DNA of 64,000 nucleotides. Source: Veleropilina oligotropha (lineage: Eukaryota). The notes under the pieces are model-generated. The model did not search any database, was not told where the DNA came from, and saw only the letters and a program-made list of their open reading frames with translations. This document shows, piece by piece, positions 39,801 to 62,017 of the stretch. Every line of letters starts with the position of its first letter. The first letter of the stretch is position 1. Location: contig JBEUKZ010000007.1 in the NCBI GenBank assembly GCA_048128005.1, positions 124,001 through 188,000 on the forward strand. The letters run 5' to 3'. Both the position numbers and the translations under genes were made by a program.

Positions 39801-40875
39801 TTAGGGTCTGTTCAGTCATGCTACACATTCACAAATCTGTGGTGAATGAGCTTTCTAGCAGACCATTTGGAAGCATGTATTGCTCTTACGACGTTTGACC
39901 GTACCAGTTCGTTCGAATCTCCGTTACCACGTACAGTTGTCCGTATCCGGCCGGAGAGGGAGTGTTTCCTTCCGCGATAATATGAACATGTCATGGTTTG
40001 AACCAGAAGGTTGTAAATATACAGGGTATTAAGCATCAATCCCGTCCAATCTTACGGTGTAGCGGATAAATTGACCTGTAGCAGCGATCAGTAGCATTGA
40101 CATTTGCTTTTACATAAGATGGATTTCAATACCATCCAGTCTGATTAGGCATCAGAAATATTTATGTGAAACGGCGGTTATTGATAGAGTTGACCCATGA
40201 TGGTATAATGCAGAGACCTAATGAGACCACCGTGTGTCGTCAACCAATCAGAAATTGCTTGCGATATGGCAAATTATGCCTATTATATGTTGTCGAGTGA
40301 CGTCGCGGTAAACACGGTGCACTGAATACTGCATGATGTTGAACCATGAGGCGCTAGCCGAGTGGTTTAACATTATAAGGTATTCAAGGCACCATGTTTA
40401 CCAAGACGTATCTCGACAACGTATTTATCTTGTTTTTGCGATGCTAACCTTACTAGCAAACTCCTGGCTTGGTTCATAACACTGTTGTTATTTATGATCA
40501 TAACTGTGATGTATAGGCATTGAAAATGGCAATCTTCATATTTGACTAGCAAACGACAGCTTCAGTAACGCCTACTCAGCCCATATTGACAGTTTGTCCA
40601 CCGAGGAACTACATTCATTCAATTTAATAGTTCAATATAATCAATTTTATGAGACTAGTTCATTCTTTTGTAATGATTTATGTCAGTTATATCACTTTCG
40701 ATATTTGTTGTTAATCTGTTGAATTAACCGATTAGACGACAAGACTGCTGTTGTTGTTGGGGGGGGGGGGGGGGGGTGATGACATATTTTCTCTATCTTG
40801 ACATGTTTTCATTTATTTTTACAGCAAAGGACCAGACGATGCGTTGTGACACCTCACATTGCAAATATTGGTTGA
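27893..40875 (+). CDS. epdr: EPDR gene B: secreted ependymin-related protein (228 aa, 6 coding exons)
   Basis: Exons 27893-28051 (MSYILVILLVVPFAAAQTNATKKPCCYPERFQAF...), 32003-32107 (DFGVLVFDYPGRRIY...), 32324-32417 (KKKYRVTSVGDCKEC...THCIP), 35698-35880 (DAAFVGTAYFG...TDGCYLV...), 39075-39169 (EEQALWMYNNKPILNPELLAIPDEC...), 40825-40875 (QRTRRCVVTPHIANIG*). Canonical splice sites, 687 nt open frame, AATAAA at 40924-40929. Confidence 0.92.
28400..28675. repeat. ~47-bp minisatellite, ~5-6 copies
   Basis: cctcctatattatgtcacaatagac(g/a)agcacctagtgggggtcatttgtgtc. Confidence 0.92.
29955..30160 (+). mobile_element. SINE family A copy
   Basis: gcgttcgaatctcggttgggg...gtccgtaactggtcgg...gttaagcatcgatcc. 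Confidence 0.75.
30400..30815 (+). mobile_element. Degraded CR1 LINE 3' fragment
   Basis: Similar to the CR1 at 55260-55990 (LYKH...EYAVQA...RLDV*KHSFSKRVV); cut by the hairpin at 30821. Confidence 0.65.
30821..30966. repeat. Long hairpin with paired CGAG/CGAG mismatches
   Basis: Near-perfect arms except CGAG at 30861/30924 and 30886/30897. Confidence 0.9.
32401..35334 (+). repeat. 38/40-bp tandem satellite (~75 copies) derived from the gene B exon 3 end and splice donor
   Basis: Unit GACTCACTGTATACCGG|GTATGTTATRACATGG(AG/TGTC)GGA; the first copy overlaps coding THCIP and the donor at 32418. Confidence 0.97.
36580..37750. repeat. ~570-600 bp tandem duplication (two copies) of a non-coding repeat
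   Basis: aatatgttgtaggta.cacctagatac at 36581 and 37151; both end ...ctataggacgatcttcgttcg. Confidence 0.9.
38530..38779 (-). mobile_element. SINE family A copy (young subfamily, very similar to 58828-59028)
   Basis: Reverse complement matches 58828-59028 over ~200 bp with few differences. Confidence 0.85.
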
Positions 40876-41194
40876 TTACAAAAGAGAAAATCTTCAAAAA
40901 CAATGAACACACTAATTGAATGCAATAAAATCCCTGGCTATATGTTCACTTTATTATTCTGTAGAGAAAAATCGTTACATACAATTTTTCTGTAGTTAGC
41001 AAACGAAAATATACGCTTTGAAAACTGTCATGGAAGGATAGCGACCGTATTGCAATGTTTTGAAAGTCTGGAGGGTGGCATTTATCTGATCATTGACGAA
41101 ATAGTTCAGCATATTTAAGAATTATTTTGGGGATTTTGGAAACATAACGTTATGTATTTTATCAAAAACTGGACGTTTTGAAGGCAATTTATAG

Positions 41195-41445
41195 CAAAGC
41201 CAGTAATCGTGTTGTTTCGGTTGGAGACTCTGAAAATCACTGGCTTGATTCCGCTGACACGAAAAGTAGCGGGTTCGAATCTCGGTTGGGCCATGAGTCA
41301 TGTTATGAGTCACAGTTGTCCGTAACCGATCGGAGAGAGCGGGTTTTCCCAGGGCAACCGGGCTTTCCTCCCGCGATAATATGGACATGTCCTACTTTGA
41401 ACCTGATGGTTGTAAATATACAGGACATTAAGCATCAATCCTTTC
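41195..41445 (+). mobile_element. SINE family A copy
   Basis: gggttcgaatctcggttggg...ccgcgataatatggacatgtcc...ttaagcatcaatcc. Confidence 0.85.
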
Positions 41446-42398
41446 CTTTTATTCTTTGTATGATAGCGGGTTTTGCTTTGGTACCTGCATAGCGTCAACA
41501 AAGGATTCGAAGACATCACGTAATCGTAAATTAAGTCATTATTGTATATAGGTACTGCATTGATCACCATTGAGACAGTAAGCACTTAACGGTGCCACAC
41601 GGCCCTTAGAAAAATAGTAGCATACCAGACGGGAACCGATCATACATGATTATATCGGCTACCATTTTGACAACATATCCATCATTGTAAAGGACATGTT
41701 GATATCATCAAGGATTCTTCCTCGAGTAAATATCGATTCTGCAATGTCAACGTTAGTGCTGCGGATGCTTAGATGACTTTTATGATGACAAATACTTGGC
41801 ATGAACTCAGTCGCAAACCGCCGATTGGCGGTGACTGAAACCATATTGGTACACCAACACCCAATTGTTCTGCTTTGGGGCGGGGCTCCATGTCTCATTT
41901 TAACACGTTTCATTCTCATACCAGGACATTTCAATATTATCGTGGGGAGAATGGCGGGCCGTCCGGGAAAACCAGCCATCACGGACCAGATTCGAACCCA
42001 CTTCTGTTAATCAGAGCAGTCCAGCAGGTGAATTGGGAGACGCGCAAACCACTATAGCCAGAGGTTGATCATTGCAAATTCTTGAAAATCCTGATAATTT
42101 TCAAAACAATAGTACCCGGATAGAGGAATATTATCACTGTATTTAGGAAAACGCTTTGAATTGAATGCCAGTGTAATACTGCTCTCAGTACCACTGAAAG
42201 GTATAGCCGGTGCAAGGGCATCATAACAAAAGCAATCAAGGCAACTAGCAATAATGTCAAACCAAGCAAACGTGCATTCGCGTGAACAAACATCTGTAAA
42301 CGCTAGAGCCAAAGAGAAAAGGTGATTATGTTTTCATCCGTAGTACAATCACCAACATTGCCTGACGATTGATGTGCACTCTTTGACTCATGTACGAT

Positions 42399-42445
42399 GA
42401 TAAGAATGGAAAATGTACAATATGCTCGATCGACACATGTGGGAA
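42399..42445 (+). promoter_or_regulatory. Putative GATA + CSL-like module of gene C
   Basis: GATAAGAATGGA 100 nt upstream of ATG; TGTGGGAA at 42438-42445. Confidence 0.4.
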
Positions 42446-42498
42446 TGATATGAATAGCCTTCGGTCAATCTAACCACGAGTGTCAACAACATAACGCC

Positions 42499-45400
42499 AT
42501 GTTATATGTTACTGTGATACTCCTGTCTGTGACGCTTGCAAACGGACAGGACTCGAATCAGACCAAAACTCCATGCTGCTATCCAGAGCAGTGGCAGGCG
42601 TTCATGGGAGACATCGGGTTGGATGACGGGCTCACCACGGCAAACTTCGACCTCTTTGCGGTAGGTAATATCAGGCGTTTGATCCAAGACGAGAATTAAT
42701 GTCAATAAATATATAGTCTGAATGGCGTACACGTAGTGTATTATGTGTATTTCGTGTCGAAATAATAAGATACGGTAAATTTCAGTGGATTACTTGGTAA
42801 TACCGAGGTTTGGTACTCTTTGTTGCATATGGATTCACACATGAATGATATGTACGTCATATCATGTACGATAAAGATAAAGTATATCGGACTAAATGGC
42901 TTCCACCTGAGCCATAATATGTATTTGGCCGATCACAACTGTGGTATGACTGCTACAATATGCACCTGGCGGAAATTGTTAGCAAAATGTTATTAAAGTA
43001 TTCTTAGTCAATTGACCTTGTACTAAAAAATTAGTTACACTTCGAATTACGAGCAAATTTTGCCCTAACCACTACTGAAATCATCCAATCAAATGTCATA
43101 AGAGAAATACGTTACGGTATTGCACTATAATATGGGAAACTGAGCTTGATTAGTGCTATGTGATGTAATATTGGAAAATTCATATTATAATGCGAGAAAG
43201 CTCCATAATATAATAATATTCAGTGTAATCCACCAGACTCCGCAGATTACAGACTACCGATTTGAACCAACATTGTTTAATTTATATAATGTTACTAACA
43301 TCACTTTGACAATTACCATGTTAGCATAAATTCCAGGATCAAGGGCTAATCGTGTATGATTATCCGGCTCGTAAGCTGTACAGGAGGACTTGGGAGATTA
43401 TATCGGACACTCATGTTACAGAGTTTAGCGACTTTAACACGGTGAGTCTGTTCGTTATCAACAGTTAGCAATTTTTGCTTATTTTAAATAAATATATCTT
43501 TATCTAACGATCGATGAATTAACAACTTTATGTAGTGTAATTTACATCTCAATATTAACAAGATCACTCCAACACTGTCAGCAAAAGAGGACACATAATC
43601 ACAAACCCCAGGTTCGGCGACGACATCGACGGATTGGTAGGAAGTGAACAGGAACTCGCCGACTTGGTGAACCACCTGGACGAAACACCTTTCCGGTATT
43701 GAATGAACCTCAGTGCTGAAAACACGAAAGCTGGTTTAAATAAGGCTGAACCAATCACAACAAAGTTCACAGTAAATGGAAAAATGGAAAAGAACCTGTG
43801 GGACAATTGAAATACATTGTAGTCATCATCACCTAAGAAGGCTCAAATACCTCGCATGAGCAAAAGCAAAGGTAAAACTCAAGATCATATGAAGAGGCAA
43901 CAACAAAGCTATCAGATCTAACGTAAAGCGCATGCATGCAATGATCCTTTCGATAATCTTGCAGTTGTGTGAGTAATGGACATAAACTGTACATCTACAA
44001 ATTCGGATCCAAGGTGTACAAATGAGATGCCTCGGAATACTTTCTTACACCATATTACCAACGATGAAATCCGCAGTAACAACATCAAACGTGCGCGTTA
44101 CAATGAACAATCTTCTGACCACAGTGAAAAAGAGAAAACTAGGATTGTATGGGAACATAACAAGATCAAATGGGCTCTCAAAGACCATCGTAAAAGGAAG
44201 ATTGGGGCATACAGACGAAGAAATGGATAGACAACACATCTGAATTGACCAAAAATCTTTCTGACATCTCGGCAGTTACCCACAACCGCCACAAGCGGAA
44301 GCAGTTGGTGAAGCGTTCGTCAGTACAGAGTTACGGGATCAGTTAGTAGTAAGTACGTCTCTCAAAATAAGGTCTCGACATATTAATCTTTCCAAGAATA
44401 TACATATAATAAACAACACATTCAAAACTCGAATATGACTTCAATATCAGTGTGTATATTACCAATAACTTGTGTCTGATATCACGTAATCTGGAAGGTG
44501 ATGTTAGATAATCGTGCTGCTTTTATTTATAGCAAAAGAAATACACTCTGACGACTATACAGGGGTGTACGGAATGCATCGTTACGAATACGGATGGGCC
44601 CCTGAATCATTGCATCTCAGGTAGGTGCTCCAATATTTAGGTCGATAGTGATAGATTGATTCTTAAAGACCTGTATATTTACAACCATCAAGTTCAAGTC
44701 AGGATATATCCATATTATCGCGGAAGGAAAGCCACGTCGCCCGGGGGAACCCGCTCTCTCCGGCCAGTTACGGACAACAGCGATTGCTAACTGAACAAAG
44801 AATGTTAATGCCTCAGTCGAGATTCGAACTCACTCCTGTTAGCTAGCGCAATGGAGACAGTGGTTTCAGTGTCGGCATTCGATAATACACGGCTACCGGG
44901 GCGACCTCCAATACTTAGGGTTTATGAAGGATATTCACTTGACCTAAAGTTAATAAAGGTATGCCGTAAATGATTAATATTTGCATTTACCAATGATTGC
45001 ATCTCATTTTTAATCTCCATCCTGACACTGATCAGACTGAAGAGTGCTTATCTTAGGTTATTTGACAAAAACCTTCGTGATATTTGACTGTAACCGACTT
45101 TTCTGATTTCTTCAAAAGATACATGACGTATAAAGAATGTAGTGTTGCTGTAGCTGCATCATTGTTTTAAATGTGTATTAAAAGATATACTTATTGCATT
45201 TCCGCGTATTCAATTTTATAAAAGGTGACATTAGAAAACCAATGACAAATTGTGGCATCATTTACCAATGTTCACTTAGATGAGAGACGAAACAAACTTT
45301 TGTTAACAAAAGGCACATCATAATTTTTTCTATTATTCTTCTGTTTTTGTGTCATTTTAGTCCATATTTCCTCAAAATCAAATGCGGATCACGTCTTTAC

Positions 45401-46561
45401 ATTTCAACTCATCGTCATTTAACGGTCATTATTTTGTTCGTTTAATCTTTCAGATGATGCGATTTATCGAGGAGAGGGTTACTTTGGCTATGGGCCAAAC
45501 CGTCTCAACATTGACGAATGGGAACTCCCGGACAAGGACAACAGCGACAACATCGTGACCTTCTGGGTTACTCAAGATGGCTGCTACCCAGTCACGAATA
45601 CGATAAAGAGTACAGAGAATGGAGGTGACCTGGCGGTGGTCATTTTTTTCTTTACAATGTTATAATTTGTGAGGTAAAGATGACCGATTGGATTTAATAA
45701 TACAATGTGGGTTATTAGAACGACGATTTGAATTTCTGATGCATTATTGGTTTTCCGTTTAGCCATCAACGTGTTGGAAGTACCTTGACGGGCCTTTTAT
45801 CTTAAAAGTCTTTGTTTTTATTATCAAATATGAGTTTTACGTTTTGATTTCGAAGTAGCATTATGTTATAATGCTTATGAAGACCATGCAGCTGTTAGCT
45901 TGACCACATTTTTTTTCAGTGCAAGAAGAACGTGCTCTGTGGCTCTACAATGTGAAGCCTATTTTGAACCCGGAGATGTTGGTTATTCCAGAACAGTGCG
46001 AGGCAACAGCAATGGTATACATTAAAAATAAAAGAGAGATTTTTCTAAATATTATTTAGCATTTCTGACATATTGGTGATGCAATAATTTTGTAATAAGT
46101 GAGTGTCAATTGTTTAGATTGTTGTTTGGACAAGCAATATGTCGCCAATGCGAGTCGACACAACATAACCGTACTGGATATCGAAACTGGTAGATTGTCG
46201 GGAAAACGTTCAGTTAATTGTACTTTATTGTATGTCGTGGATGCAAATCTCGAGACCGTTGTGGTTTAGTAGGACGCTTAAAAGTTATAGATAATATTAT
46301 AATGAATATATTATGTACTAGCAGGCACACCCGTTTACAAACGGGTGACTTCGCTGAAATCCCCCATCCCCCCCCCCTCAATTTCCCCTATTTTATATCA
46401 TGAATAAAAATATTTCACCGTAGTTATGCCATATGTAATTTGTTGCTATGCTATATGTAATTTGTTACCAAATATTAATTGAAAATATGTATTTAATTTG
46501 TCTGTTTCAGCAACGGCAAAGGAGATGCAACGTACCGCTACATATTAAGAATATAGGATGA
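42499..46561 (+). CDS. epdr: EPDR gene C: secreted ependymin-related protein (223 aa, 6 coding exons)
   Basis: Exons 42499-42660 (MLYVTVILLSVTLANGQ...PCCYPEQWQAF), 43337-43441 (DQGLIVYDYPARKLY...), 44533-44620 (QKKYTLTTIQGCTEC...NHCIS), 45454-45624 (DAIYRGEGYFG...TQDGCYPVT), 45920-46014 (EERALWLYNVKPILNPEMLVIPEQC), 46511-46561 (QRQRRCNVPLHIKNIG*). 672 nt open frame; AATAAA at 46608-46613; aligns exon by exon with gene B. Confidence 0.92.
43560..44345 (+). mobile_element. Degraded RTE LINE 3' fragment in intron 2 of gene C
   Basis: RFGDDIDGL RT-core remnant; MRCLGILSY...VKKRKLGLYGNITRS..LSKTIVKG. Confidence 0.75.
44655..44905 (-). mobile_element. SINE family A copy
   Basis: ccatattatcgcggaaggaaa...ccagttacggacaac...gagattcgaactc. 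Confidence 0.8.
46317..46346 (-). mobile_element. Helitron-like 3' terminus
   Basis: Minus strand hairpin ACCCGTTT-GT-AAACGGGT followed 8 nt later by CTAG|T. Confidence 0.5.
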
Positions 46562-48659
46562 GATGCTCATGTGAAACTGGATAAATTAAATCACTTCTTT
46601 TATTTTGAATAAACGTAAGAAACGTATAAACGTATAAATTGTTGCTTTATTTGTATGCATCATGCGCGGTATAATGTTAATGCTGACACCAGGACAAGAT
46701 GCTGACGGCAACAGTTACTGACATCCCGCCCTACTAGTCAAATGACTACAGATTTCGAATGATAAAATTAGTATCAGCTTGTTAGTGTCAAAGACTTCCG
46801 CTTTCAGCATTGATAAGTCTTTTCGAAGTCCATTCCTATGACCTTTAACATAAACTTTATGTCTGAAGAGAGTATATAATAAGAGTTATACGTAGGAACT
46901 TTACGAGTGATCTCAATACAAACAATGTTGTGGTCACTTGGGTTTATGGTGTTGGGTGTCCTAGCACGATCTCCACATCAAGTATCACAAAAATGATATC
47001 ATTTTGATTTAAATTGGAGTTTATTGTTCTCTTCATTACACATATTGACCTAAATATATTCATTTAGATGTCGTAAGGATTCGCATGGTTCATCCAGAAG
47101 ACATGACGCCCCATATCGAAATGGAGTGAGGTGATGGATGGCATCAGGTGCATGGCACCAGTGATGAAATGAAAATCATATCGATGATCAACAACCGGCA
47201 ATTCACCAATGTATATACCAAAACCGTCGCTCGAAGAGCCGATAGTAGGACTCCACAAAACACACACCTGCAATATTTTGGCCATACAAATGATAGAATC
47301 TGCATTAGCATCCTTGATCGTGGGAAGAGAAGGTTAGAGAAATGAATACGAGAAACAAAATGCGAGAGAACGGGCAACACATCAAACGTCTCATCTAAAA
47401 TGTTAGCATAAAAAGAAGAACTGTAATCCTGATAATGTGAGCGATATATAATATGTTCATTTATACAAGTATTGACGGTCGAGTGGTTCTGTGGATTGAT
47501 TTGACGACCGTCTTCGATGTACTCTTTCCTTTACATCAAACGAAAAATGCCTGGATCTTAATTGGGTCAGAAAACTATGACAATTTCCAACATTTATTTA
47601 GATAGAAATGTCTGCTTATTAAGCATTTGAAACTGCTTTTAATCCAGTTGCTTTCGTGGCTGATTACAGTCATGTCGACTTTTCTATTTCTCTCTCCAAA
47701 AACTCAAGATTAAATAATATTAATTATCGACGCTTCGCCACGAAAGATTTTACACCATAAGGGGACAATCACAAGCGATAATTACCGTCTTTGACGTCTC
47801 ATGGCGAAAATCCAAAAATTATTAATACTAAATCTCGAGTTTACGGGCGAGAAGTCGAAAACTCGAGATGGTCGCAATCAGTCATAATAATTTGCAAGTT
47901 TTCCTCCAGGCCGCACGGGTAACGAGTATAAATAGTGTAAATAGTGTCGAATCTGAATTCATGTCTAAAGCCGGGTTTTAATCTACCGATTTTTCCGTCT
48001 GAACGAAGGATCGGTAGATGAAGACGAAAAAAAATCCTTGAAAGTGTCAAGGAATCGCCAGCAGATTATCGAAATCGACAGCGATTTGCTTGTTAATTCT
48101 TTTCAGAATAAATAGCACGAGGTAAAATTGACCTAAAATAGACTTGAAACGTCATTCAAACTATTCAAACCGGCCCATAAAAACGATAGGTGAGCGCTCA
48201 AATGCCTACCCATGGTTACCGTCCGATTTATTCGGCCGGTTAATTAAAATCAGCCAGTTACAAAATATCGGTAGATGACTTCCCGGCTTAACAGCCGTGA
48301 GTTAATCCACGCTGGGTTAATCTTTGCTAAGTTATCAGTCTGAGTTGTCCATAAACGCCCGCAGGGAGCGTGTTTTCCAATGTGACCGGGCTCTTCACCC
48401 GCGATAATATGGACATATCATGCTAAGAACCTGAAGGTTGTTTAAAATATGACATTAATCCAAATCAAACCGAAATTGCTTTCCAAAGACGCTCGAAAAC
48501 AATACAAATTATAATACTTATAACTGTAATCTCGCTCTGAGTAACGCGGTGGGCGGCCGGATTGTCGCCACTAGTGGCACTACAAGATCCCTCTCGAACA
48601 TCTGGTTAAGCCACCGAACAAAGAAATTACGTTATTCGATAAACAGTGAAAAATTCCTT

Positions 48660-48965
48660 GATCTATTTGGTGGTGGTACAACCAAATCGATGGTGTTTTG
48701 TTATGGGGATGGTGGTGGTACAACCAAATCGATGGTGTTTTGTTATGGGGATGGTGGTGATAGAACCAGACCTTGGTGTGGTGGTGGTGGTACAACGAAG
48801 TCGGCGATGTTTTGCTACGACAGTGGTGGTGGTACAATCAGGACGACGGTGTGTGCTACGGGGGGGTACAACCAGGCCGGTGATGTCTTGCTACGGGGGG
48901 AGTTGCGGTACAATCCAGTCGGTGATGTTTAGTTACGGCGGTGGTATTGGTAGAACCTGGTCTGT
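48660..48965. repeat. Degenerate GGT-rich ~42-bp tandem repeat
   Basis: ggtggtggtacaaccaaatcgatggtgttttgttatgggga and diverged copies. Confidence 0.8.
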
Positions 48966-49049
48966 GATTTTGATTGAATTGATGTACGAGACATACACAA
49001 TTAAATCAATATAAATATAAATTAGCATATAAACTTTCAGCCAGCAGAT

Positions 49050-50830
49050 TTGTAAAAGTAAATGGGTTAAAGTTTTTGTAAAATATACACTTTTTACATA
49101 CGAGACATGCAGATAAATGAATAAATTATAAATTTGCATATACCTTTTTTTCGCCAGTAGATTTTTAAATAGTTCTTGAAGTGATAATGCTCTAAAATGT
49201 TTTGACGTATTAGGTCTAAATCAACGCATTCCAATAATATACGTTTGACCGTTTGGTTTGAAGCACAAAACGCCAAGGTGGTGGATCTTCTTTAAGCGAG
49301 CAGGAGTGAGTGGCGTCTCAATGTCCAATTCGCTGTCTGGTCAATACATTTTCCTTTGTCCTTCATTGCTCTTAATTCATATGTAAATTCAGTGGCGCTA
49401 TCCGGCAGACGGACACGAAAACAGTGTCTGCAGGCAACAGCCGTAGCACCCACACGATCCCCATCCTTGAACCCAAAAGTATATATGCTTATTCTATCAG
49501 AATATTTTAGTTTCAAATCATTTACTTATACGCAGTTATGTCTGTCTGATTTTTTAAGTTCTGTGTAAGTTGAAGGTCGATTATTGCTGATATTAATGTC
49601 CATGGTAGTATATCCGAAATACAATTTGATTCAATCTAAATGTGTCTGAATTTTCAAAATGGTGGAATTGCTTTAGATTTTATTTTCCTGAAGTAGATTT
49701 CACTGTTTCGAAATCTGGGTTGGATGGATTTGATAGCATATTGCAATGACAATTTCACGTATGCTTCGACGTAGCGGCATTCCATGGTGATGTGCGGAAG
49801 GCACCTGGAGCAAGTCGAAACTCTTGATTATGGATGGGATCCAGTATTTGGAGATAAGACTGTCGAGCAGAGTCATATACAATGTTCCCATAACCAAGTT
49901 TGGATCGAATTAATGCTCTATACATTATCAGTAAACCTCTCCTATCAGCACCCTAATTGGTGTTAGAAACGACTTTCATTAAGTTTAGGGCCTTTTGTCA
50001 TTTCGCTTTGACATATTTTATATGCGGTAAAATCCTCAGTTTATGGTCAAATGTCAGGCCTAAAAATTTAAATTGATCTAATGCTGGATTGATATGACTA
50101 ACCAGTTTTATTTTAATACAGGGTCGTCGTGCATTTACTGGCGTTTGAAAAAGTGCATGCACTTGGTTTTGTCATTTGAAATTTTTTGTTAGAAATGAAT
50201 TTTGATGTGCAGTTTTTTGGATGATAAGAAGGGAGACAATCCATATGTCAAAGTGTTTGCAATGTCTTTTGGTGTAGTAGCATCTGTAGTATTTGTTTTG
50301 AGGTGGTTAGTGCAGGTGGATGTTTGTTTATCACTAATCTTATTTTACGGATCATACCTCATGTCCTTTTAACGGATGAACGAGAGTTTAGTTTGGCAAC
50401 ATAAGTTTGCGGCGGTGTGTTCCTACGGGGGAGTGGTACTATTCGGTCGGCAGTGTTTTGTAACTGTGAAAATGGCAAAACTCGGTCGATGGTGTATTAC
50501 CAACAGATATACCAGGCTTCTATCGTGTTCTTCTGTACATATGACGCCGGACAGTGGATACTAAACACCATGGGTGCGATACATCGCCCATCATGCACCT
50601 TTGTTTTTATCTTGTCCTTAGTTTCCAATAATACTTTTCTGGAGTTTTAGTGGGCCCGAGGATGGTTTATTTCGCCGAAAATCGTTCTGAAGGCTGTGGA
50701 TGTTATATAAAAGATCAGTACCAAAAACCTCCTGAGTGTATCATGTTCCATCATTAGCTTATTGGATGAGTGAATTATGTTAACATGATCTGGGAAACGT
50801 GTAACAATGTCCTTCTTAATGATGACAATA
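49050..50830 (-). mobile_element. Degraded I-group LINE with RNase H and C-terminal CCHC-like motif
   Basis: IYTFGFKDGDRVGATAV...RLPDSATEFTYELRA (RNase H-like); CAFC...TVKRILLEC; RT remnants upstream. Confidence 0.7.
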
Positions 50831-51323
50831 ACATCATCTACATATCAGATGGCGTTACACAAATGGTTGGATGATTGGATCGGTTGTAACATGCAATCAA
50901 ACGCCTTGTATTATGATACTAGGATATATCCAAATTAGGGAGGAGGGTAGGTATGGATAACCGGGAAGATTTCCCGTTTTATCATCCAATGTATTATGGT
51001 CGTATGTGAAAAGCTCGGCATAAGGGTAACTTAGAATATTCACCCCAGTAAATTCCCGAACTATGTTTCTCTGACCCACTCTTGTGGGACCAATCAATCA
51101 ATCAGTTTAGTTTTGCCAAATATTGGTTCAATTACATATAAATACTATATAATATAGAGATTAGATTAGGTGAAAGGATAAGTATATATAAAAGAGTATA
51201 TAGAAAAATTTACAAGTAACAAATAAAGTAATGTGATATAAGTATTATCTATTGATAGATATTAATATGATGGCAGGGAGACCAGTAAAGAAACCTCGAA
51301 AGGCTTGTAAAAACGACGGGCCA

Positions 51324-51467
<144 letters not shown>

Positions 51468-51599
51468 TTAGAGTTAAGAGGGAGAGGATTATATATTTAT
51501 ATATATATACATAATATACACGCAAACATATACGCAAATAAAAACATAATTAAATAATATCAAAAACACAATTACACGTGTATAGATCTGAATAAATAT

Positions 51600-54205
51600 A
51601 TGATGTCAATTTATCAGTTATACGGAAAAGTAGATAATGTAGAGAGAAGAGGAATTGAAAAAGTATAATACCAATTTTCTAAATTATATGTTCAGCCCAT
51701 GAGGTAATAGATAAATAATTAGTAATTAATAGTGTTTTTAGTGATTTCTGGAATATATGCATTGCACGAGAATTCTTTATAAAATTAGGTAATGCATTCC
51801 ATAGTTTGGGACCCGTAATTTTAATAGTAAATTTCCTGGTGTTTGTACGACAACTGTTTATATGGTAATCATTACTAGATCTAGTATTATGTTGATGAAT
51901 TTGATTATTTAATATAAAATAATTTTGAAAGCTTGTCGGTAGCAGATTTCGATGAAACGAAAACATGAGTTAGGCCTTTTGTATTTTATTTATATCATAT
52001 ATAGTCAGTAAACCCAGAGAATTAAAATTAATCTGTGTATGAGCACGGTAGTTGACACAGCTTATTATTCTAATAACTCGTTTCTGTATGCGGAAAAGAT
52101 TACATAATCGTGATGGATAAGTGATAGCCCAAACAGTGTTGCAGTATGATAAGTATGGCAATATTAAAGTACAATATAGTGTGCGTAATATTCTCAGAGG
52201 TATTTCAGCTCTAAGTCTATTTAATTATCCTGCGTGTTTTGAAATTTTACTAGTGATGTTTGATATGTGATTTAGCCAATCAAGATTTTCATCAATTTGT
52301 ACTCCTAGGAATTTGGTCGTTGATACGCACGTTATTATCTTATCATCAAGTTTGATATTAATGCTTTCCGTTATGTATTTGCTACATTTGTTGGAAAATA
52401 AGATGTAATTTGTTTTTTTTATGTTCAATGATAACTTATTGGCCTTAAATCAAGTAGAGAGATGACTTAGTTCAGAATTAATTGTGTCTGTTAGTGTTTC
52501 GATGTTTGCATGTGAATAAAAAATATTTGTGTCATCTGCAAATAGGATGTATTTTAATAGATCTGAAGAATTACACATATCATTTACGTAAATGAGGAAT
52601 AGGAGGGGTCCAAGTATTGATCCTTGTGGAACACCACATTTGATAGTTAGATTAGTAGATTTGCATTTGTCGTAGGTGACATATTGGTGTCTATTGGATA
52701 GGTAGCTCCTAAACCAATCAAGCTGCGTTCCTCGTATTCCATATTGTTGAAGCTTTTTTAACATTATGGAATGGTCAATGGTATCAAATGCTTTCGAGAG
52801 ATCTATGAAGATCCCGATTGTAAATTATTTCTTATCAGTGCTTAATGAAATTTGATCTATTAATTCTAGGAGTGCCATATATGTTGAGTGGTCAGATCTA
52901 AAGCCATATTGTTGTTTATACAAAATGTCATGTTTTCCAATGTATTTAATTAATCTATTATATACTAGTCTCTCTAGTATTTTTGAGAAGCAAGGTAATA
53001 CAGAGATTGGTCTATAATTAGAGTATAAATTGTTATCACCACTTTTAAATATTGGCTTTACCTTTGCTAGTTTATGTTGGTCAGGTACAATTCCGGTTAT
53101 AAGAGAAAGATTTAATATGTGAGACAAAGGTGCACTAATATTAGCCATTACTTGTTTTATAATGGACGATGATATATCGTCATGCCCGGTGCTTTTTCCA
53201 CTTTTTAGTCGCTTACCTAAATTTTCAATTTCAGATGCATCTGTCGGAAAAAAGTAAAACGAATCTGAGTAGTTTCCACGTAAGAATGTAGAAAATGATT
53301 GCGATATATTTGGGATCGTTGAAGCTAAATTGAGTCCAATATTGGTAAAATATTCATTAAATGTGCGAGTAATTTCTGCAGGATCAGTAATAGATTTATC
53401 ATTATGATTGAAAGTCTTGCATGGGTTGTCGGAAGTTTTACTTTTGTTGAGAATACGTTTAATTTCTCTCCATGTTTGTTTCAAATCGTTTAGCTAGTTC
53501 AAATCGTTCAGCATTATATTTAGGTTTTGAGATGCGGATTAAGTGAGTTAATTTGTTTTGTATGACAGGTATTTACCACGACTCGATTGCGTTCTTTTAT
53601 TTAAATAATCCCTATATAATTTGTGTTTGCGATTTGTAGATATCACTAGACTGTTTGTCATGTATGGCTTAAGAGGACTTGTTTTTCTGTTCGTTTTCAA
53701 TTTTTTTAGGGGTATGTCATTGTTATATAGGATATTGAATTGTTCTATAAATGCTTCATAAACTTCGTTTGTATTGGTGGTAGATAACAAGGTTTCCCAT
53801 CTCTCATTGGCAGGTGCGTTATTGAATTTTGCAATATTTTCCTTAGTTGTTTGTCGCTTATGATAATAAGGATCCGTTTTTATAGATCTGTTTAGCGATA
53901 ATTCTATTATTAGGAAAACAGGGAGGTGGTCAGATATATCAGCAATTAAGATGTCGCTTTGCAAATCAATATCAACCATATTTGTTAAAATCATGTCAAT
54001 TAGAGTAGCCGTGGTTTCTGTAATTCGTGTTGGCTTTGTAATAGTTGGATAGAGGGAATGAGATAACATGGAATTGATAAAATTATCTGTAAGAGAATGG
54101 TTGTTATAGTTAAGGATATTAATGTTGAAATCTCCAGAGATGATTACATTTTTGTTTTCCTTGTCAATTATAGTAAGCTGACTTGATATACTGTCAGTAA
54201 ACGTG
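51600..54205 (-). mobile_element. 5'-truncated L2/Crack-type LINE ORF2 (APE C-terminus + RT), inactivated
   Basis: SGDFNI, PTRIT..TATLID, ISDHLPV, NYRPISVLP, GVPQGSILGPLLFLIYVND, ILFADDTN, GPKLWN; several in-frame stops. Confidence 0.93.
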
Positions 54206-55259
54206 GATCAGAGCAGTTAGTACAGGTGAGCTGGGAGCAGCACTCTTATCTACTCCGTCACAGAGCAGCCTAGACAAGTGGAATATAAAAATGAACATGA
54301 CGTCTATCACAAATATTATATGCTGTTATACGCAATCTGCTATCAGTTCCATTTGTCTTCATATTAAGTGTGCACCAAGGGACCTTACATGCGCAACACA
54401 GCACTAAATGCCTCGCATCGGAAACACAGATAGCAAGAAGCATGTGACGCCAGCCACATAATGAATATGCATATTCCATTCTAAATCTGCATAGGCTTAA
54501 GCCAAAGAGCTAAACAATGACTGCAGGGTGTGAATTGTGTAGGGTTTTTCATAAGCGCAATATTGGCCGGGTCATCTTAACAAGCCACAATGAAATAACA
54601 AGCCACGTTGAATAATTATTTCGCTGTTTTTGTATCGATCGATGCTATTTTCCATTTTAACATCCGTCATAACCTTGCAATCGAGAGAGGAAAGCGCGGG
54701 AAAACCCACTCTGTGATTGTTATTTGAAACAAATTGCCCAGCCGCCGATTCAAACTCAATTAGACGAGTGAATTGGTAGTCACCTTTCTTATACACTACA
54801 ACACACAGTGGCCTATTGCTCTCTGTAATAATCTTGTTACACAATACACACCATGTGATTGGCTATTTGAACAATAGGCTTTTTTGTGTTAAATACCCAT
54901 TGTTCCAAATAACAACATAGATAATAGCTAACTCGGTTAGCTGGCCAGATTAAATTAAGTGATAAAGGATTGGCCAACTTGCCAATGAAAGAGCCTATTT
55001 CTTATAACACCCCATGAGCACGTTATGTTGGGAAATTGGATGTTTTAAGGGGTGACAGCTAGCAACTTATATAGATTACCGCTGTGTGTATAACATATAA
55101 TACAACTGTCATCCCTCGGAGATATTAACATAACAGCTTCGTTCTCGCTCGGCGTGTTATGTGTATATATCGCTCGGGCTGACAGTGTATTATCCATTAC
55201 ATATTCACACTCATTTGGGACTTTGTACTATTTAAATAGATTTAAATAGAATTTGTTTG

Positions 55260-55990
55260 GGTTTAGGAAGTGCATTACTGCCACTCATATTAAAACCCAT
55301 TGTCGTTTCTGGTCATCTATAGCCTGCCCTGTTTCTTAAAATACTCATCTATGCGGTTTTTAAATTGGTTTACAGATGTTGATTCTACTACATTACTAGG
55401 AAGACTGTTCCATTCATCGACAACCCGATTTGAGAAAAAGTGTTTTCTAACGTCTAGTCGGTATCTTTTTTTGTAAACTTTGTATTGATGGCCCCTGGTA
55501 GGTCTTTGGTTCATCTGAAAAAGGAAAGTACTGTCAACATTGTCAATTCCTGTAAACATTTTACATACCTGAATCATATCCCCCCGTGTCCTTCTCAAAG
55601 ACAATGTTGTGAGGTTAAGTGCTCTTAGTCTATCCTCATAAGGTAATTATCTCAATTCGCCTATCAATTTTGCGGCTCTTCTTTGAACTTGTTCAAGAAT
55701 TTTGATATCCTTTGCAAGATATGGGCTCCATGCTTGCACTGCATATTCTAAATGCGGTCTAACCATTTGCTTGTATAAGCGTGTTATGATGACTCTGGAT
55801 TTAAAATTAAAGTTTCTCTTTATCATTCCCAATATTTGATTACCCTTTTTAGCTGATTCTGCACATTGATTTGATGGTTTAAACGTCTTGTCTACCCATA
55901 CACCCAAATCTTTCTCTTTTGTTACTACTTCTAAGGTATCTGAACCCATTTTATAATTGAAAGTTTTCATGGCAGAATTCTTTCCTAGAC
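55260..55990 (-). mobile_element. CR1 LINE 3' fragment
   Basis: EKDLGVWVD...LYKQMVRPHLEYAVQAWSPY...RRTRGDMI...TRGH...FFSNRVVDEWNSLP. Confidence 0.9.
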
Positions 55991-56060
55991 AATGTTCGCT
56001 TTAACAATGTTAACGCTGCCTGTCTTATTTTGCATTCTGCAGATAAGAGGCCGACTAATA

Positions 56061-56097
56061 GATAAGGCTGGACTTGCACAATATGGTGGATTCCCAC
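56061..56097 (+). promoter_or_regulatory. Putative GATA + CSL-like module of gene D
   Basis: GATAAGGCTGGA 101 nt upstream of ATG, second AGATAAG at 56041, TTCCCAC at 56091-56097. Confidence 0.45.
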
Positions 56098-56161
56098 CGA
56101 TACGGTATATTGTATTGTAATAGTCGCCTGCCATTCTCAAAACTATTTCACGGGCAGAGGC

Positions 56162-59100
56162 ATGTTTTTGATACTAGTTCTTCTGTTTGTGTCACTGGCA
56201 GCCGGGCAGACGCAGCCGGCAAAGAAGCCGTGCTGCTACCCGGACAGTTGGCAAGCAACGGTCGTAGACATCGGGACAGAGTTCGATTTGGAGGAAGTCG
56301 ATGGAGAACTGGAAGAATTTACGGTGGGTAGGCCGAAACCGAAAATTCGCGTTAGTGCACTCAGTATTATTCACATTGTGTCAATTTGATGTTAGTTATC
56401 ACATGTGTAAAGCATTATAAAAAATATAATATCCAGCCAAAACACACATTGGATAATTTTGGGCACCGCCTTATCGTATATCTGAAGCATTTAACGCCTG
56501 TTCTTGGTGTGCGGTAGGATGGCTCCAATGTGCTGTCTGCTAAAGCATCTGAATGAAAATCATCGAATACTTAGTGTATGCTATACAGATGATGGTTACA
56601 CACCAACACCTAACATTAAAGTATATATAATAACCGTAGAAGGATTACTTAGGAACCGCTACCGGCTACAGGTGTAATGTTAATACCGGTACATAACCTA
56701 CCGAATGTGGCAAGGATAGCAATTCGGACATATGTAATAAGCAGAAATGATACCTTCGAACGAACCCTAAACCCTTTCACTGCAGGATGAGTGACGACTT
56801 TAAACTGCATATAATGTAACCATTATATTATGTTATCCGATTGAAGAGAGATTTCTGCACATAATATACCACGCATCTTCAGGATCTAAGCCCATATTTC
56901 AGAGATATTTATATAAACTTTTCATTAGACATCTGTTGCGTGAATGTGTGTACATTAATGTAAACTTATTACTGTATGGATGTATAATAAATATTTAATA
57001 TTAATTATATCCGCGTATGCTATTTCAGAATTTTGGGTTGTTGCTGTATGATTGGCCGCATCAAAGAGTTATGAGGCAATTTCACCAGCCTCGTACACGA
57101 TATCGTGCCACTATTTATACGGATTTCGCAAAGGTAAGTTAATTGCAATATGCATATTGATCTAATGCAAATGCGCACCAGGGGCAATGTGTTAGGCGAA
57201 AATGGTCTCGAAAACGAAAGATCTATAAACTGGCCATTCCCATTGTTTATACCATCGACGCAAACCGAAATGCGCCGTACTATTAGAGGATCTATAGTTG
57301 AAGCAGAATAAATAATATAAAAAGTCTACGCTTATTCGATAACGATGTAAGCTGCGGTTTCAAGATGTACTGGTGATTTCACAAATCAGGCATGACAAAA
57401 AATCAATGGCGTTCAAAACTTATTATTAATTTTGCTGTGATTAAACTGACGTTGTAAGCGGAGCAACTAAAAATCTGGAGCCACAGGAGCCCTTATAGTC
57501 GAGGGCAAGCCTTGCCTTGTCAATCTATTTCACTCATATATATCTGCTTAACGTCGATGGCATTGTCAATAGCATATTATTTCAGAAAAATGCAAATGAT
57601 GAATGCCTAAGTCTGAGTAAAATTGTTTCTTATCAAAGACGGCATGTACCGATACATACGGGGAAATTGTTTATTGTTCTATCGAATCAGAGCTATTCAG
57701 ACATAAACGTTGATGACAGTAGTACTTCTGACAGATACAGCATAATCGCTGGGTATCGATAAATACGAACCATCAAATTGCCGAAAACCTAATATAACTG
57801 CTTACATTCATCATTATCCTAACACAAATATACAGATCACACCATTTCCAGTGGGCCTAGGGCATTGGATCTTTTCTCTTAACTCTTCCAGGGAAAACGC
57901 TACAAGCATACGTACGGCGGTGGGTGCTCTGAGTGTGTCACGACAGATATTACATTCAACATGACGCATTGCATTCCGGGTAAGGCTTGTACACGGGAGA
58001 AATACTTGGTAACGACGAGATAATTATATGCCGTCGTGGTTTATTGGTATAACACTGAACTCCGGATGGTTAGGTTCGATGTTCGACTCCCGTCGCGGCT
58101 AATTCATTTGGGTATGGGAACATGGTATGTAGAGGCATAACGCGTCAGTATGTTAACTGCAATGACACAAGGACGAGTTGAGTTCGTAACTCGAGTCACG
58201 CAGGCCTATAACCTGATATTAAATTGTGATACGGCGCATTCAGTGCTAGGGGCTACGCTCCTACAACACCACGGCGGGGCGGCCATTTAAAAAAGACGTG
58301 TAGTTCGTCTGTAACTATATATCGGTCTACGCTTGTCTGACCATGAAATACTAGTATATTTTATGTGCGCGAGATGTGTGATTTAATTCCGTCGCTGTGA
58401 CATAACTTTATACGCGATGGGTGTTCCTGTATGCAGTTGATGTCATTATGTCATTATGTGTCATGTATACGTCAGTATATGCGTTGGTTAGTTCATGATA
58501 TCATGTAGATATGTCATTATATGGGGTACCTGTATTGTTACTGTAACGACACTACTTATGATGAATTCATGAACTGTTATCTTGCGGCTATCGTTGTAGC
58601 TAACGCAACCTTCCTGGGATCTGTGTATTTTGGATATGGTGATAACCGCCTAGAGCTTGACGAATGGCATTTTCAACGACAAGGTTCCGATTACAGACAA
58701 TTTGTGACAATTAAAGAGTGCTACCCGGTCGCAGATGAGCTATTCAAAGAAGACGCCGGTGGTAAGCTTCTAACATTGGACCACTGTGACTGGTGATTTA
58801 TTCTGAATATGCAAATACATCTAACAAGGGCCGCTTCGGCATCGCAGTGGGTAGAGTGTCCACTCTAAATTCACTGGCTTGATTCCGCTAATGCGAACAG
58901 TATTGGGTTCAATACATGGCTGAGGCATTGACATTTGTTCAAGTTATGAATCACAGTTGTCCGTGACTGGCCGAAGAGGGCGGGTTTACCCGGGCGACCG
59001 GGGTTTCCTCCCGCGATAACACGGACATCAGGGGCGGATCCAGAGAGGGGGGTGCGGGGGTGTACACCCCCCACCCCACCCCCAATGGGAGTGCCCTTTT

Positions 59101-62017
59101 CATAGAGTTGATATTTTTTTGTATAATCACTTAATAATCATATTTACTATACAAATGTTGCTTTAATTATACTGAGTTCTTAATTACAATCAGACCACTA
59201 CTATAGCTGCGCATATTCTGATAGTTTTGTGAGTAGTATTAAACTTAAAACTAACATGTATTCATGATCTCAGTAGTCGTTGACCTTCCTACACCTTCGT
59301 CACTGAAATGTGAACTCAAAGACTGGGCCAAACACTGGCTATCAAAGCAACCCAGTGATCTACCATCGAATATGTTGAGTTGTTATCTTGCTGCTGATGT
59401 TGATCAATACCCGAACATCAAAGTTCTTCTACATATTGGATGTACGCTGCCGGTTGGAAGTGCGAAAGCTGAGAGATCATTTTCCTGTTTCAGACGTTTA
59501 AAAACGTACTTAAGAAGTTCAATGGGCAAGCATCATTCCTCCCTCCCACATCTAACAAGTTGACGTTGTTATAGTACTTTCATTATGAAAGAATTAACCT
59601 AATACATATATCCTGAACACCACTAGGCCTATCTAGTTTAAAAGTAGATACAAATATGCGAAGAGTGTAATAAATTCGTTATGCTGGCTTTTTGACAGGG
59701 TGTGCGAGATTTTACCACCCTCCAATATTCCGGAATACTGAAATTTGGAGGTTGGTAAAATCCCGTACATCCTGTCAAAACTCTGTATAACTAATAATAT
59801 CATATGAGTATATATAGCATACGATTATAATATATGAGTACAACATCATTTAGGTCGTTGATGTGTCCTTACATAGATCATATGGAAAGCTGAAGAAGTT
59901 GGACATTGACATTAAACAGACACCAGCATCCCATACATGACATCGATCTTGTTGTTGTTGGGTTGCTTTTTATCGAGGTCTTTCACGTTTTCCGTGATTT
60001 CGACCTCTTTAAGGCAACGATCATGTTCTATAATTTGCTATCCATTCATGGTAACACCCAACCGGTGTGAGTAATATTAGGCGCTTGATCCAGATCACAT
60101 TATAACCATGACATAAATCTACAACAGGTACAGTTCTTTTATCGTGAGAAAATGTTGATTTGTCGTCTTCACTATTGATTGGCATGAGATTATCTAATAT
60201 GATTCTCAGCAATATATTATATACCTGTCTCATTTATGTAGATGATGACAATGATGCGAAGAATATGTTTTTTTAAATACTTTTCTATTCCTGATTTCAG
60301 ATACTAATGAGGAGGCACGATGGATCTATGACATAAAGCCAATTCAGGATGCACAACTGTTGTCGATACCGGATTTATGCATAAATAATAACCGGGTACG
60401 TATTGAGTTTACCTTTTGCGAAACGTCACGTCATTTGCTACCGGGTGCTACGTACATACCGCGGCAATCGGTGTAGTAGGTACATTATGGTTATCTTACT
60501 TTGTCAAGCGTCTGTCCAGTAGAAATCACCTGGTGCCGAGTCAATTCCAGCCGAAATCTATGCCTCTGGTGGCTCACAATTGATCAATAGACTCACGGAG
60601 CTGTTTCAATCCATGTCGACCCAAGAGAAACTTTCGCAGAAATTCAATGTTGCTTCTATCGTCCACCTGTTTACGAGAAAAGGAAACCAGCAAGCATGTG
60701 ACAATCACCGCGGCATCTCACTGCTCTTCATTACAGGGAAGATTCTGGCCAGGATTTTTCTGAACCGTATGAATCAACACCAGGAGCAAAATCTGCTTCA
60801 AAAGAGTCAATGTGGATTCAGGCCGAGCCACAGTACAGCGGATATGATCTTTGCTGCGCGCTAACTACAAGAGAAATGTCAGGAGCAGAACATCGAACTC
60901 TATACCACTTTTGTAGATCTGACCAAGGCCTTCGACACTGTCTGTCGTGAGGGACTCTGGAATATCATGGCCAAATTCGACTGGCAAAGTTCATCTCACT
61001 GGTCTGGCAATTTCACGACGGCATGCTATCGTGCAGGACGGTGGAGAAAATTCAGAGTTATTCCCTGTAACAAATGGCATCAAACAGTGCTGCATACTTG
61101 CCCCACACTATTCGGTATGATGTTTTCGGCTATGTTGACAGACGCTTTTCGTGATGGCAACATCGGATTCAGTATCAGGTACCGGACAGACGGAAAGCTC
61201 TTTAACGTACCGAGGCTGCAGGCGAAAACCAAACCCCAGGAAGCCGCTGAACTCATTTCATAGGAGGTGCAAGTCAAATGAAAGGACAAAGTTCCAGATA
61301 CAAAGATACTCCAGAGGGCAATGGTCAAGCGTTCTCAACTCTGGTGGGCAAGTCACGTGCGCCGCATGTCCGACAAACCTCCCGGAGAAAATATTTTACA
61401 ACGAGCTAAAGGACGGCAAGCGCTCTCATGGGGACAAAGGAAGCGGTACAATGACACATTCAAAGTTACCCTGAAGTGTTGTAGCATCGATCCAAACTCT
61501 TGGGAATAATCTGCACAGGACTGCACCGCCCGGTGCACCCTGATCAAGTCTGGACTGACGAACTACGAATCAAGGCGCGTGGTAGAGCCGAAGAACAAAC
61601 GTCAACAGCGAAAAAGCAGGGCGAGTACCACTCCTCAGCAGGCTCACCATCGACAATTAATTGCATGCCCTCATTGCAAAACACAGTTCAGAGCGCGGAT
61701 TGGACTTACCAGCCATCTTCGCATACACAACCCCAATGATATAAGAAATCTTGGTCGTCTTCGGCAGCGAAGGACGTACATCATCATGTTGTGTAGTTAT
61801 CTGCCCCTGAAATCTTTATTTTATATTTTTCGTATGCACAACAGTGTAAAGCTCGCACTGCGTGCTCGCTATTAATATATTGTGCGTTGCTCTGTCACTT
61901 ATAAACCGTTATTTAGAGGAAGACTACGTAACTAACAATTTAAAAAATTTCTTTCAGGGTGGCGGCAATCGCGGCAAACGTTGTACCACTTCGACATTCA
62001 TATCTCACCTCGTTTAA
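56162..62017 (+). CDS. epdr: EPDR gene D: secreted ependymin-related protein (223 aa, 6 coding exons)
   Basis: Exons 56162-56323 (MFLILVLLFVSLAAGQ...KKPCCYPDSWQA), 57029-57133 (NFGLLLYDWPHQRV...), 57892-57979 (GKRYKHTYGGGCSEC...THCIP), 58600-58761 (NATFLGSVYFG...KECYPVA), 60301-60395 (EEARWIYDIKPIQDAQLLSIPDLC), 61958-62017 (GGGNRGKRCTTSTFISHLV*). 672 nt open frame; AATAAA at 62079-62084. Confidence 0.92.
58030..58295 (+). mobile_element. tRNA-derived SINE, family C
   Basis: Head gccgtcgtggtttattgg...gttcgactcccgtcgcggc, non-tRNA body, A-rich end. Confidence 0.55.
58828..59028 (+). mobile_element. SINE family A copy truncated by a hAT insertion
   Basis: Matches 38579-38779 in reverse complement; stops abruptly at the TIR at 59029. 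Confidence 0.85.
59029..59570 (+). mobile_element. hAT transposon remnant (TIR + C-terminal dimerisation domain)
   Basis: TIR CAGGGGCGGATCCAG; ORF YPNIKVLLHIGCTLPVGSAKAERSFSCFRRLKTYLRSSMG (hATC motif). Confidence 0.85.
60520..61790 (+). mobile_element. Internally deleted RTE LINE in intron 5 of gene D
   Basis: DNHRGISLL...QCGFR..HSTADMIFAAR*LQEKC..., FVDLTKAFD, C-terminal C2H2 CPHCKTQFRARIGLTSHLRIH. Confidence 0.9.

Follow-up and report, generated by a model that had tools for sequence, protein, structure and literature searches.

Probable terminal micro-exons encoding a multibasic motif and an extra cysteine in three ependymin-related genes of Veleropilina oligotropha

Ependymin-related proteins (EPDRs) are abundant secreted proteins that occur in the molluscan shell matrix, in vertebrate lysosomes and as sponge pigments. 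Here we report on a group of EPDR genes in a 64-kb stretch of the Veleropilina oligotropha genome (contig JBEUKZ010000007.1, positions 124,001 to 188,000, referred to below as the window), in which three plus-strand genes, B, C and D, each probably end in a micro-exon that encodes a basic R-x-[KR]-R motif, a cysteine directly after it and ten more residues before the stop. An earlier note on the same DNA had proposed that this exon yields a furin-cleaved, Cys-tethered and possibly amidated C-terminal peptide, and knew of no description of such a tail among EPDRs.

A tail tethered by a cysteine is in fact already known from vertebrate EPDR1/MERP (PDB 6E7O, 6E8N, 6JLD), which shares its family, and presumably its fold, with B, C and D. 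In the part of PMC6363788 that was available to us, C113/C210 is described as the most conserved disulfide, tying the C-terminal segment to strand 6, and C88/C222 as a vertebrate-only staple of the tail at the groove rim; the region of this staple orders on ligand binding, and in human EPDR1 the tail Cys follows the last conserved Cys at a spacing of 12. The corresponding spacing is 11 in B and C and 14 in D. A tethered tail had thus been described before in the C88-C222 pair, which nevertheless uses a different partner: the partner Cys of EPDR1 lies in the strand 3-4 loop, whereas the extra Cys of B, C and D lies three residues from the strand-6 Cys, and there is no Cys in exon 2 or early exon 3 of any of the three genes, so that nothing occupies the vertebrate-type strand 3-4 partner position. 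EPDR1 also has only two residues after its tail Cys, as against ten in B, C and D, and, unlike them, has no multibasic motif before it. Since the vertebrate pair is described as vertebrate-specific in that portion of PMC6363788, the resemblance of B, C and D to it would be convergent.

Among molluscs the comparison lies with two groups of proteins. The first consists of clade-2 EPDRs with an ‘Arg + 11’ tail, such as Haliotis XP_071107667.1 and Gigantopelta XP_041364858.1, which share with B, C and D both the six-Cys profile and a conserved Arg 12 residues from the end; the Gigantopelta tail, T-R-R followed by 11 residues, has the same arrangement as that of gene B. These proteins differ from B, C and D in that their tail has no Cys, their strand 6 has no C-x-x-C and their basic site is mostly a single Arg or R-x-x-R, and in that their tail is predicted to be helical (in Haliotis), whereas Pro and beta-branched residues abound in the tails of B, C and D. 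The second group consists of Mytilus EPDRs (for example the M. galloprovincialis ‘ependymin-related protein 1-like’, P0066), which like B, C and D have R-x-R-R near the C-terminus, the R-H-R-R tail apparently standing on its own terminal exon, but which have only six residues past the basic site, no Cys in the tail, and a tail predicted to be disordered. Viewed against these systems, B, C and D belong to a known family and would realise in a new way a feature whose type is known, the Cys-stapled C-terminal segment, joined here to a formal convertase site.

The probable terminal micro-exon

Each of the three genes was assembled from six exons, the last of which is as follows.

Gene B exon 6, terminal micro-exon: 40825..40875, plus strand; QRTRRCVVTPHIANIG and stop, with RTRR at 40828-40839, the tail Cys at 40840-40842 and AATAAA at 40924
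Gene C exon 6, terminal micro-exon: 46511..46561, plus strand; QRQRRCNVPLHIKNIG and stop, with RQRR at 46514-46525, the tail Cys at 46526-46528, ATTAAA at 46585 and AATAAA at 46608
Gene D exon 6, terminal micro-exon: 61958..62017, plus strand; GGGNRGKRCTTSTFISHLV and stop, with RGKR at 61970-61981, the tail Cys at 61982-61984 and AATAAA at 62079

The peptides read at these positions are exactly those that the earlier note had given, with R-x-[RK]-R directly before a Cys and 11 residues, the Cys included, to the stop in all three. Expressed as the pattern R.[KR]RC.{10}stop, this arrangement has three matches in the six translated frames of the 64-kb window, none of them outside these exons, compared with a chance expectation of 0.11 per window from 100 mononucleotide shuffles. 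Between B and C, exon 6 is the best-conserved portion of the proteins, with an amino-acid identity of 0.69 (11/16) vs 0.49 over the other five exons; the proportion of differing sites in this exon is 0.233 for nonsynonymous sites (pN) and 1.0, that is, saturated, for synonymous sites (pS). At the nucleotide level 31 of the 51 positions are identical, where 2000 pairs of random 51-mers from introns gave 13.6 +/- 3.3 with a maximum of 25, and the 100 nt on each side of the exon are unalignable between the two genes. The codons for the Arg and other basic residues differ by paralog (AGG/AGA/CGA in B, CGG/AGG/AGA in C and CGC/AAA/CGT in D). Furthermore, a pyrimidine-rich tract and AG precede each exon 6, and AATAAA follows 49-62 nt downstream of the stop in B, C and D.

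Three points weigh against this assignment, two of them specific to gene D. Its exon 6 agrees with those of B and C at only 21 and 19 of 51 nt, respectively, and at 4/16 residues, although the P4 Arg, the P1 Arg and the Cys are among these four; the acceptor tract in front of it is weaker (8/12 pyrimidines); and the exon junctions of all three genes derive solely from the sequence and from comparison of the paralogs. Conservation, the unique motif and the AATAAA signals nevertheless make the separate terminal micro-exon proposed in the earlier note very probably a real coding exon. We hold this with high confidence for B and C, and regard it as likely, with a little more reserve, for D.

Transcripts might alternatively end by reading through exon 5, in which case exon 6 would be unused and the likeness of the downstream open reading frames (ORFs) a relic. 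An AATAAA lies ~12 nt into the read-through of gene C and would suit such an ending, but strong donors close exon 5 in all three genes, the three read-through peptides bear no relation to each other, in B and C exon 6 is conserved above the protein body despite saturated synonymous sites, and RefSeq models of other molluscs carry equivalent tails. We consider this reading very improbable. A scan for alternative terminal exons downstream of exon 5 in the three genes found only those at 40825 and 46511 to be alike; exon 6 of gene D was not picked because its tract of 8/12 pyrimidines falls below the scan threshold. Another candidate, at 62394, sits in a repeat and was rejected.

Gene models and family placement

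The 64-kb window is ~38% G+C, repeat-rich and eukaryotic. Comparing its translated ORFs with one another revealed three ependymin-like genes on the plus strand, B at 27.9-40.9 kb, C at 42.5-46.6 kb and D at 56.2-62.0 kb, together with gene A, a two-domain ependymin-like gene on the minus strand. The junctions of B, C and D were read directly in the sequence with paralog comparison as a guide and the exons were assembled by script, giving open frames of 228 (B), 223 (C) and 223 (D) codons. All five introns of each gene have GT-AG ends, and the intron phases are 0,0,1,1,0 in all three alike. The exon lengths, in the order B/C/D, are 159/162/162, 105, 94/88/88, 183/171/162, 95 and 51/51/60 nt. 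The exons that precede the terminal micro-exon are listed below.

Gene B exon 1: 27893..28051, plus strand; ATG, hydrophobic signal-like N-terminus and CC motif, donor GTAGGT
Gene B exon 2: 32003..32107, plus strand
Gene B exon 3: 32324..32417, plus strand; CKEC at 32357-32368 and the conserved C-I-P Cys
Gene B exon 4: 35698..35880, plus strand; ependymin core with GCY motif
Gene B exon 5: 39075..39169, plus strand; last conserved Cys, donor GTATGC at 39170
Gene C exon 1: 42499..42660, plus strand
Gene C exon 2: 43337..43441, plus strand
Gene C exon 3: 44533..44620, plus strand; CTEC at 44566-44577
Gene C exon 4: 45454..45624, plus strand; weak PF00811 match, E 0.003
Gene C exon 5: 45920..46014, plus strand; donor GTATAC at 46015
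Gene D exon 1: 56162..56323, plus strand; donor GTGGGT picked by homology, with a second in-phase donor, GTTAGT, 27 nt downstream
Gene D exon 2: 57029..57133, plus strand
Gene D exon 3: 57892..57979, plus strand; CSEC at 57925-57936
Gene D exon 4: 58600..58761, plus strand; PF00811 match E 2.1e-5, PDB EPDR1 match E 0.019
Gene D exon 5: 60301..60395, plus strand; donor GTACGT at 60396

The N-termini of the three proteins, judged by eye, are hydrophobic and signal-like over 16-17 residues and end in A-x-x-Q or G-Q, and each protein has eight Cys. The paralogs are old, with synonymous sites saturated over the protein body (pS ~0.75).

Scanning single exon peptides against PF00811 gave matches for exon 4 of D (E 2.1e-5, 25.1 bits) and exon 4 of C (18.1 bits), both below the cut-off of 32.3 bits, as expected because the queries are fragments; the other nine exon peptides scanned gave no match. 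In the PDB, the exon 4 peptides also match EPDR1 chains from frog, human and mouse. A profile built from the five exon-4 peptides of the window was used for an exhaustive HMMER search, which retrieved 59 proteins at E <= 0.001, of which only two reached <= 1e-10; the best single-domain E-values were ~1e-9, none of the 59 matches is close, and no close ortholog of B, C or D is among them. The proteins retrieved carry PF00811, and those that are named are molluscan, coming from Babylonia, Haliotis, Gigantopelta, Patella, the chiton Liolophura and Mytilus. A search with a homolog alignment (A3) returned nine proteins only, and word-index searches with exon 4 of C and with the exon 5 ORF of B produced no ortholog candidate.

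In the available part of McDougall 2018 (PMC6280359), clade 2, or cysteine profile 2, is characterised by six conserved Cys, namely CC near the N-terminus, G-x-C, C-I-P, G-C-Y/V-P and P-x-x-C. All six are found in B, C, D and both gene A domains, aligned with the invariant Cys columns of the molluscan homologs; consequently, B, C and D show profile 2 with two Cys in addition. The three genes are intact paralogs arranged in tandem that belong to clade 2 (‘profile 2’) of the ependymin-related family, whose members are secreted and have six cysteines, and among database proteins they are nearest to molluscan ones.

Gene A spans 26934-12050 on the minus strand and contains two ependymin-related domains. 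Within one exon (ORF 21642-21385), domain 1 ends and, after a brief linker rich in Pro, domain 2 starts with its CC. The last recognisable exon of the gene (12138-12050) stops two codons past the last Cys at a strong donor, GTAAGC at 12049-12044. Because that exon ends at a strong donor, a further tail exon is expected for gene A; a scan downstream of the last donor found no convincing one, and a candidate at 9293 on the minus strand was set aside, having no poly(A) signal.

Repeats are found within and between the genes. Intron 3 of gene B holds a 38-bp minisatellite (32401-35327, plus strand; 75.9 copies, 92% matches) whose unit includes the last 17 nt of exon 3 and the 5′ splice site (..CCGG/GTATGT..), with the result that ~76 decoy donor sites fill most of the intron. 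Splicing at any of these would shift the frame because 38 mod 3 = 2, and the array accounts for a GC skew of +0.25 at 32-36 kb. A short interspersed repeat, visible as recurring pseudo-ORFs (for example ‘..YLQPSGS..DMSILSR..’), is present in at least ten copies on both strands, at ~4700, 5350, 28110, 30050, 38540, 39950, 41350, 44700, 48380 and 58980, and several of these copies lie inside introns of the ependymin genes. Long ORFs that resemble, by eye, reverse-transcriptase genes of retroelements without long terminal repeats occur at 52450-54207 and 55317-56000 on the minus strand and at 60523-61263 on the plus strand, the last of these in the intron that separates exon 5 of gene D from its micro-exon (intron 5). 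Smaller arrays comprise a 52-bp repeat of 4.7 copies in intron 1 of gene B (28401-28645), a 42-bp repeat of 2.4 copies in a G-rich stretch between genes C and D (48668-48768), and an (AT)69 microsatellite at 51326-51463.

Proposed pairing of the two extra cysteines

The sequences CKEC, CTEC and CSEC occupy equivalent exon 3 codons of B, C and D, whereas both gene A domains have a single Cys at the C-x-E-C place (minus-strand ORFs 26029-25862 and 13414-13322), as the earlier note had observed. Its count of eight Cys per protein in the trio vs six per gene A domain also holds, the latter being counted by eye, as does the co-occurrence of the extra residues: the tail Cys and the extra Cys of C-x-E-C are both present in 3/3 of B, C and D and neither is present in 2/2 gene A domains. 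Among 70 database proteins, a Cys at +3 from the strand-6 Cys was found at one of 53 sites identified by regular expression, and that one lies inside a signal peptide; an extra tail Cys was found in one of 41 identifiable tails, that of a 97-aa fragment. In these sequence comparisons, B, C and D are set apart by the tail Cys, by the complete R-x-[KR]-R and by a further Cys placed three residues from that of strand 6. The tail as a whole is not peculiar to these genes: many molluscan EPDRs have a conserved Arg with 10-11 residues after it, but without the Cys.

We propose that the first residue of the tail became Cys and that a second Cys was added three residues from the conserved strand-6 Cys, to give C-x-E-C. 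By analogy with EPDR1, the two would form a fourth intramolecular disulfide that staples the tail, and this is the arrangement towards which we lean, if only by a modest degree of confidence. Such a disulfide would fix the tail beside the conserved one, presumably at the groove rim, and would make the staple a convergent counterpart of vertebrate C88-C222, differently wired. This would leave a small loop, closed by disulfides and made up of the 10-13 residues that separate the tail Cys from the last conserved Cys, on which R-x-[KR]-R is displayed.

Predicted structures of homologs were used as a proxy for the position of the tail. The model of a Haliotis homolog, built on 22 aligned sequences, has a mean predicted local distance difference test score (pLDDT) of 89.3 and a predicted template modelling score (pTM) of 0.83, and matches human EPDR1 (6e8n_B) with Z 18.4 and 2.8 A root-mean-square deviation over 177 aligned residues, its residues 19-217 corresponding to human chain residues 37-220. 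As the superposition reaches model residue 217 and human residue 220, the equivalent of the tail Cys (model residue 221) should lie within a few residues of human C222. The tail of this model is a helix at 218-229, with pLDDT values, taken over blocks of ten residues, of 78 (211-220) and 89 (221-230), while a Mytilus homolog model has a mean pLDDT of 82.1 and a tail, 196-218, with pLDDT < 50. In bacterial LolA, which belongs to the same fold superfamily as EPDRs, a helical plug closes the hydrophobic cavity; LolA chains match the Haliotis model at Z 10-13, and the terminal amphipathic helix of the latter could, purely by analogy, be a possible lid.

Several considerations count against the staple. 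Residues i and i+3 of a strand face opposite sides, and the staple therefore needs either a bulge or a tail that wraps around the edge strand; strand 6 is described as an edge strand in the available part of PMC10470211. The co-occurrence of the two Cys amounts to a single evolutionary event because B, C and D are one paralog clade. Neither the helix of the Haliotis model nor the disorder of the Mytilus model need apply to the tails of B and C, owing to their Pro and beta-branched residues. Finally, the parity of eight Cys equally allows a local bond within C-x-E-C together with a bond between the last conserved Cys and the tail Cys, or intermolecular bonds.

In either of these arrangements the extra Cys would be unpaired with each other within the chain, and inter-subunit bonds would produce a covalent dimer or a swapped tail. 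Besides Cys parity, and the strand geometry that disfavours both Cys facing one partner segment, it fits such pairings that EPDR1 is a homodimer (PMC6363788, in its available part) and that disulfide-linked dimerisation is mentioned for the ependymin family in the accessible portion of PMC10470211. On the other hand, it would be unusual to lose the family's most conserved disulfide, the equivalent of C113/C210 (as described in the same part of PMC6363788), and the tail Cys lies only 11-14 residues past the last conserved Cys, close to strand 6. Such alternative pairing seems to us rather unlikely, and the intramolecular staple between the tail Cys and the new strand-6 Cys remains our preferred reading.

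Ancestry and possible processing of the tail

For a comparison of C-terminal ends, 34 of the 59 HMMER matches were fetched, a script then read 70 proteins, and 18 tails were displayed in one comparison. An extension past the last conserved Cys is common among the homologs. Arg stands at -12 from the end in seven of the 18 tails displayed and at -11 in two more (9/18 in total), the seven comprising three Haliotis tails that form one 90% cluster, a second Haliotis protein, Gigantopelta, Patella and one further protein. An RR or KR pair is present near the C-terminus in 10/18 tails, including R-H-R-R in two from Mytilus. B, C and D likewise have Arg at -12, with a basic residue at -13, and because the position of their Arg matches that in the homologs, the ‘exactly 11 residues’ to which the earlier note drew attention are an inherited property of the tail. 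Exon 6 encodes the ancestral C-terminal tail of the family, a conserved Arg plus 11 residues. Across the Haliotis and Mytilus predictions the tails are structurally heterogeneous. No mention of a family-wide molluscan C-terminal tail was found in the available parts of PMC6280359 or PMC6363788, and a search for tail peptides in 12 of the 27 supplementary files of Haliotis shell proteomics gave only two irrelevant matches.

Two pairs of Mytilus models bear on the exon structure of this tail. Within each pair (P0059/P0065 and P0070/P0066) the sequences are identical up to ...QQN or ...EQN and then diverge, one model continuing ‘VS...’, as would result from reading through a GTnAGY donor, and the other having a 15-residue tail that includes R-H-R-R or H-R-R. 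The 3′ ends of P0059 and P0070 are probably predicted wrongly and lack the 15-residue terminal micro-exon. Mytilus EPDRs thereby also appear to carry a separate terminal micro-exon.

The formal furin or proprotein-convertase motif R-x-[KR]-R is present in all three V. oligotropha proteins, as RTRR in B, RQRR in C and RGKR in D. A furin-like convertase may cut the loop past this motif in the secretory pathway, which would yield a two-chain ependymin whose 11-residue C-peptide stays tethered by a disulfide as a latch on the pocket. The staple does not depend on such a cut, which we regard as possible but doubtful. It is favoured by the retention of basic P4, P2 and P1 residues in all three paralogs, with different codons and despite saturated divergence, by the signal-like N-termini of B, C and D, by the joint appearance of the multibasic motif and the tethering Cys, and by the dibasic pair near the C-terminus of the ten homolog tails; the Mytilus tail, being predicted as disordered, would moreover be accessible. 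Preproendothelin-1, as well as convertase-processed, disulfide-linked two-chain secreted proteins, resembles B, C and D in having R-x-K/R-R in a secretory protein with a Cys directly after it. In preproendothelin-1 the residue after Lys51-Arg52 is the first Cys of the peptide. Processing at Lys51-Arg52, recorded in the available part of PMC5503984, provides a precedent for a cut directly before a disulfide-bonded Cys.

Against cleavage, the site would, if the staple exists, lie in a 10-residue disulfide-closed loop with a bonded Cys at P1′, and since a convertase needs an extended P6-P2′ segment, in line with the core-region concept (PMC3281273, in its available part), the stapled loop would be a tight fit for it. 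In addition, B and D have hydrophobic or beta-branched residues at P2′-P4′, the Haliotis model places the equivalent Arg within a confidently predicted helix, and only one Arg is conserved in most homologs, which suggests a structural role. To our knowledge, cleavage has been shown for no EPDR. Our literature searches found no paper linking ependymin with furin, the five containing both words having neither in the title or abstract, and, among the five papers listed, nothing on tails when directed at the C-terminal cysteine of invertebrate ependymin-related proteins, while the best 15 of 1,860 matches to a looser search included no paper on ependymin; the word ‘cleavage’ has 0 occurrences in the available text of PMC6280359.

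The earlier note went further in suggesting that the tail might be set free to act as a signalling peptide, which in B and C would be amidated at its C-terminal Gly. Both proteins do end in Gly, with different codons (GGT vs GGA), and a basic site precedes the peptide, but D ends in Val, and a terminal Gly was seen in 0/18 homolog tails of one comparison and 2/32 of another. The conserved Cys argues for tethering instead, the proteins contain neither repeated copies of a peptide nor the architecture of a neuropeptide precursor, and the carrier is a folded, lipid-binding domain of 200 residues. Since Gly is missing from the end of D and is no regular ending in the family, the case for amidation is weak and we rate amidated release as far-fetched.

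More broadly, the terminal micro-exon of clade-2 EPDRs might be a regulatory module, consisting of a basic site and a short tail that would cover or line the LolA-like lipid groove, that is removed or loosened by furin-like convertases across molluscs, and which in B, C and D would be cut yet kept on a disulfide leash, so that the pocket could be opened by reduction or by proteolysis; we offer this as a speculative and rather unlikely extension. Were cleavage to prove true, these would be the first two-chain ependymins. The importance of the locus lies in a conserved ‘Arg + 11’ tail that has an exon to itself, frequently follows dibasic sites and would have been stapled independently here and in vertebrates, which suggests that, at the groove rim, the tail acts as a functional element and may have been fixed in place by evolution more than once.

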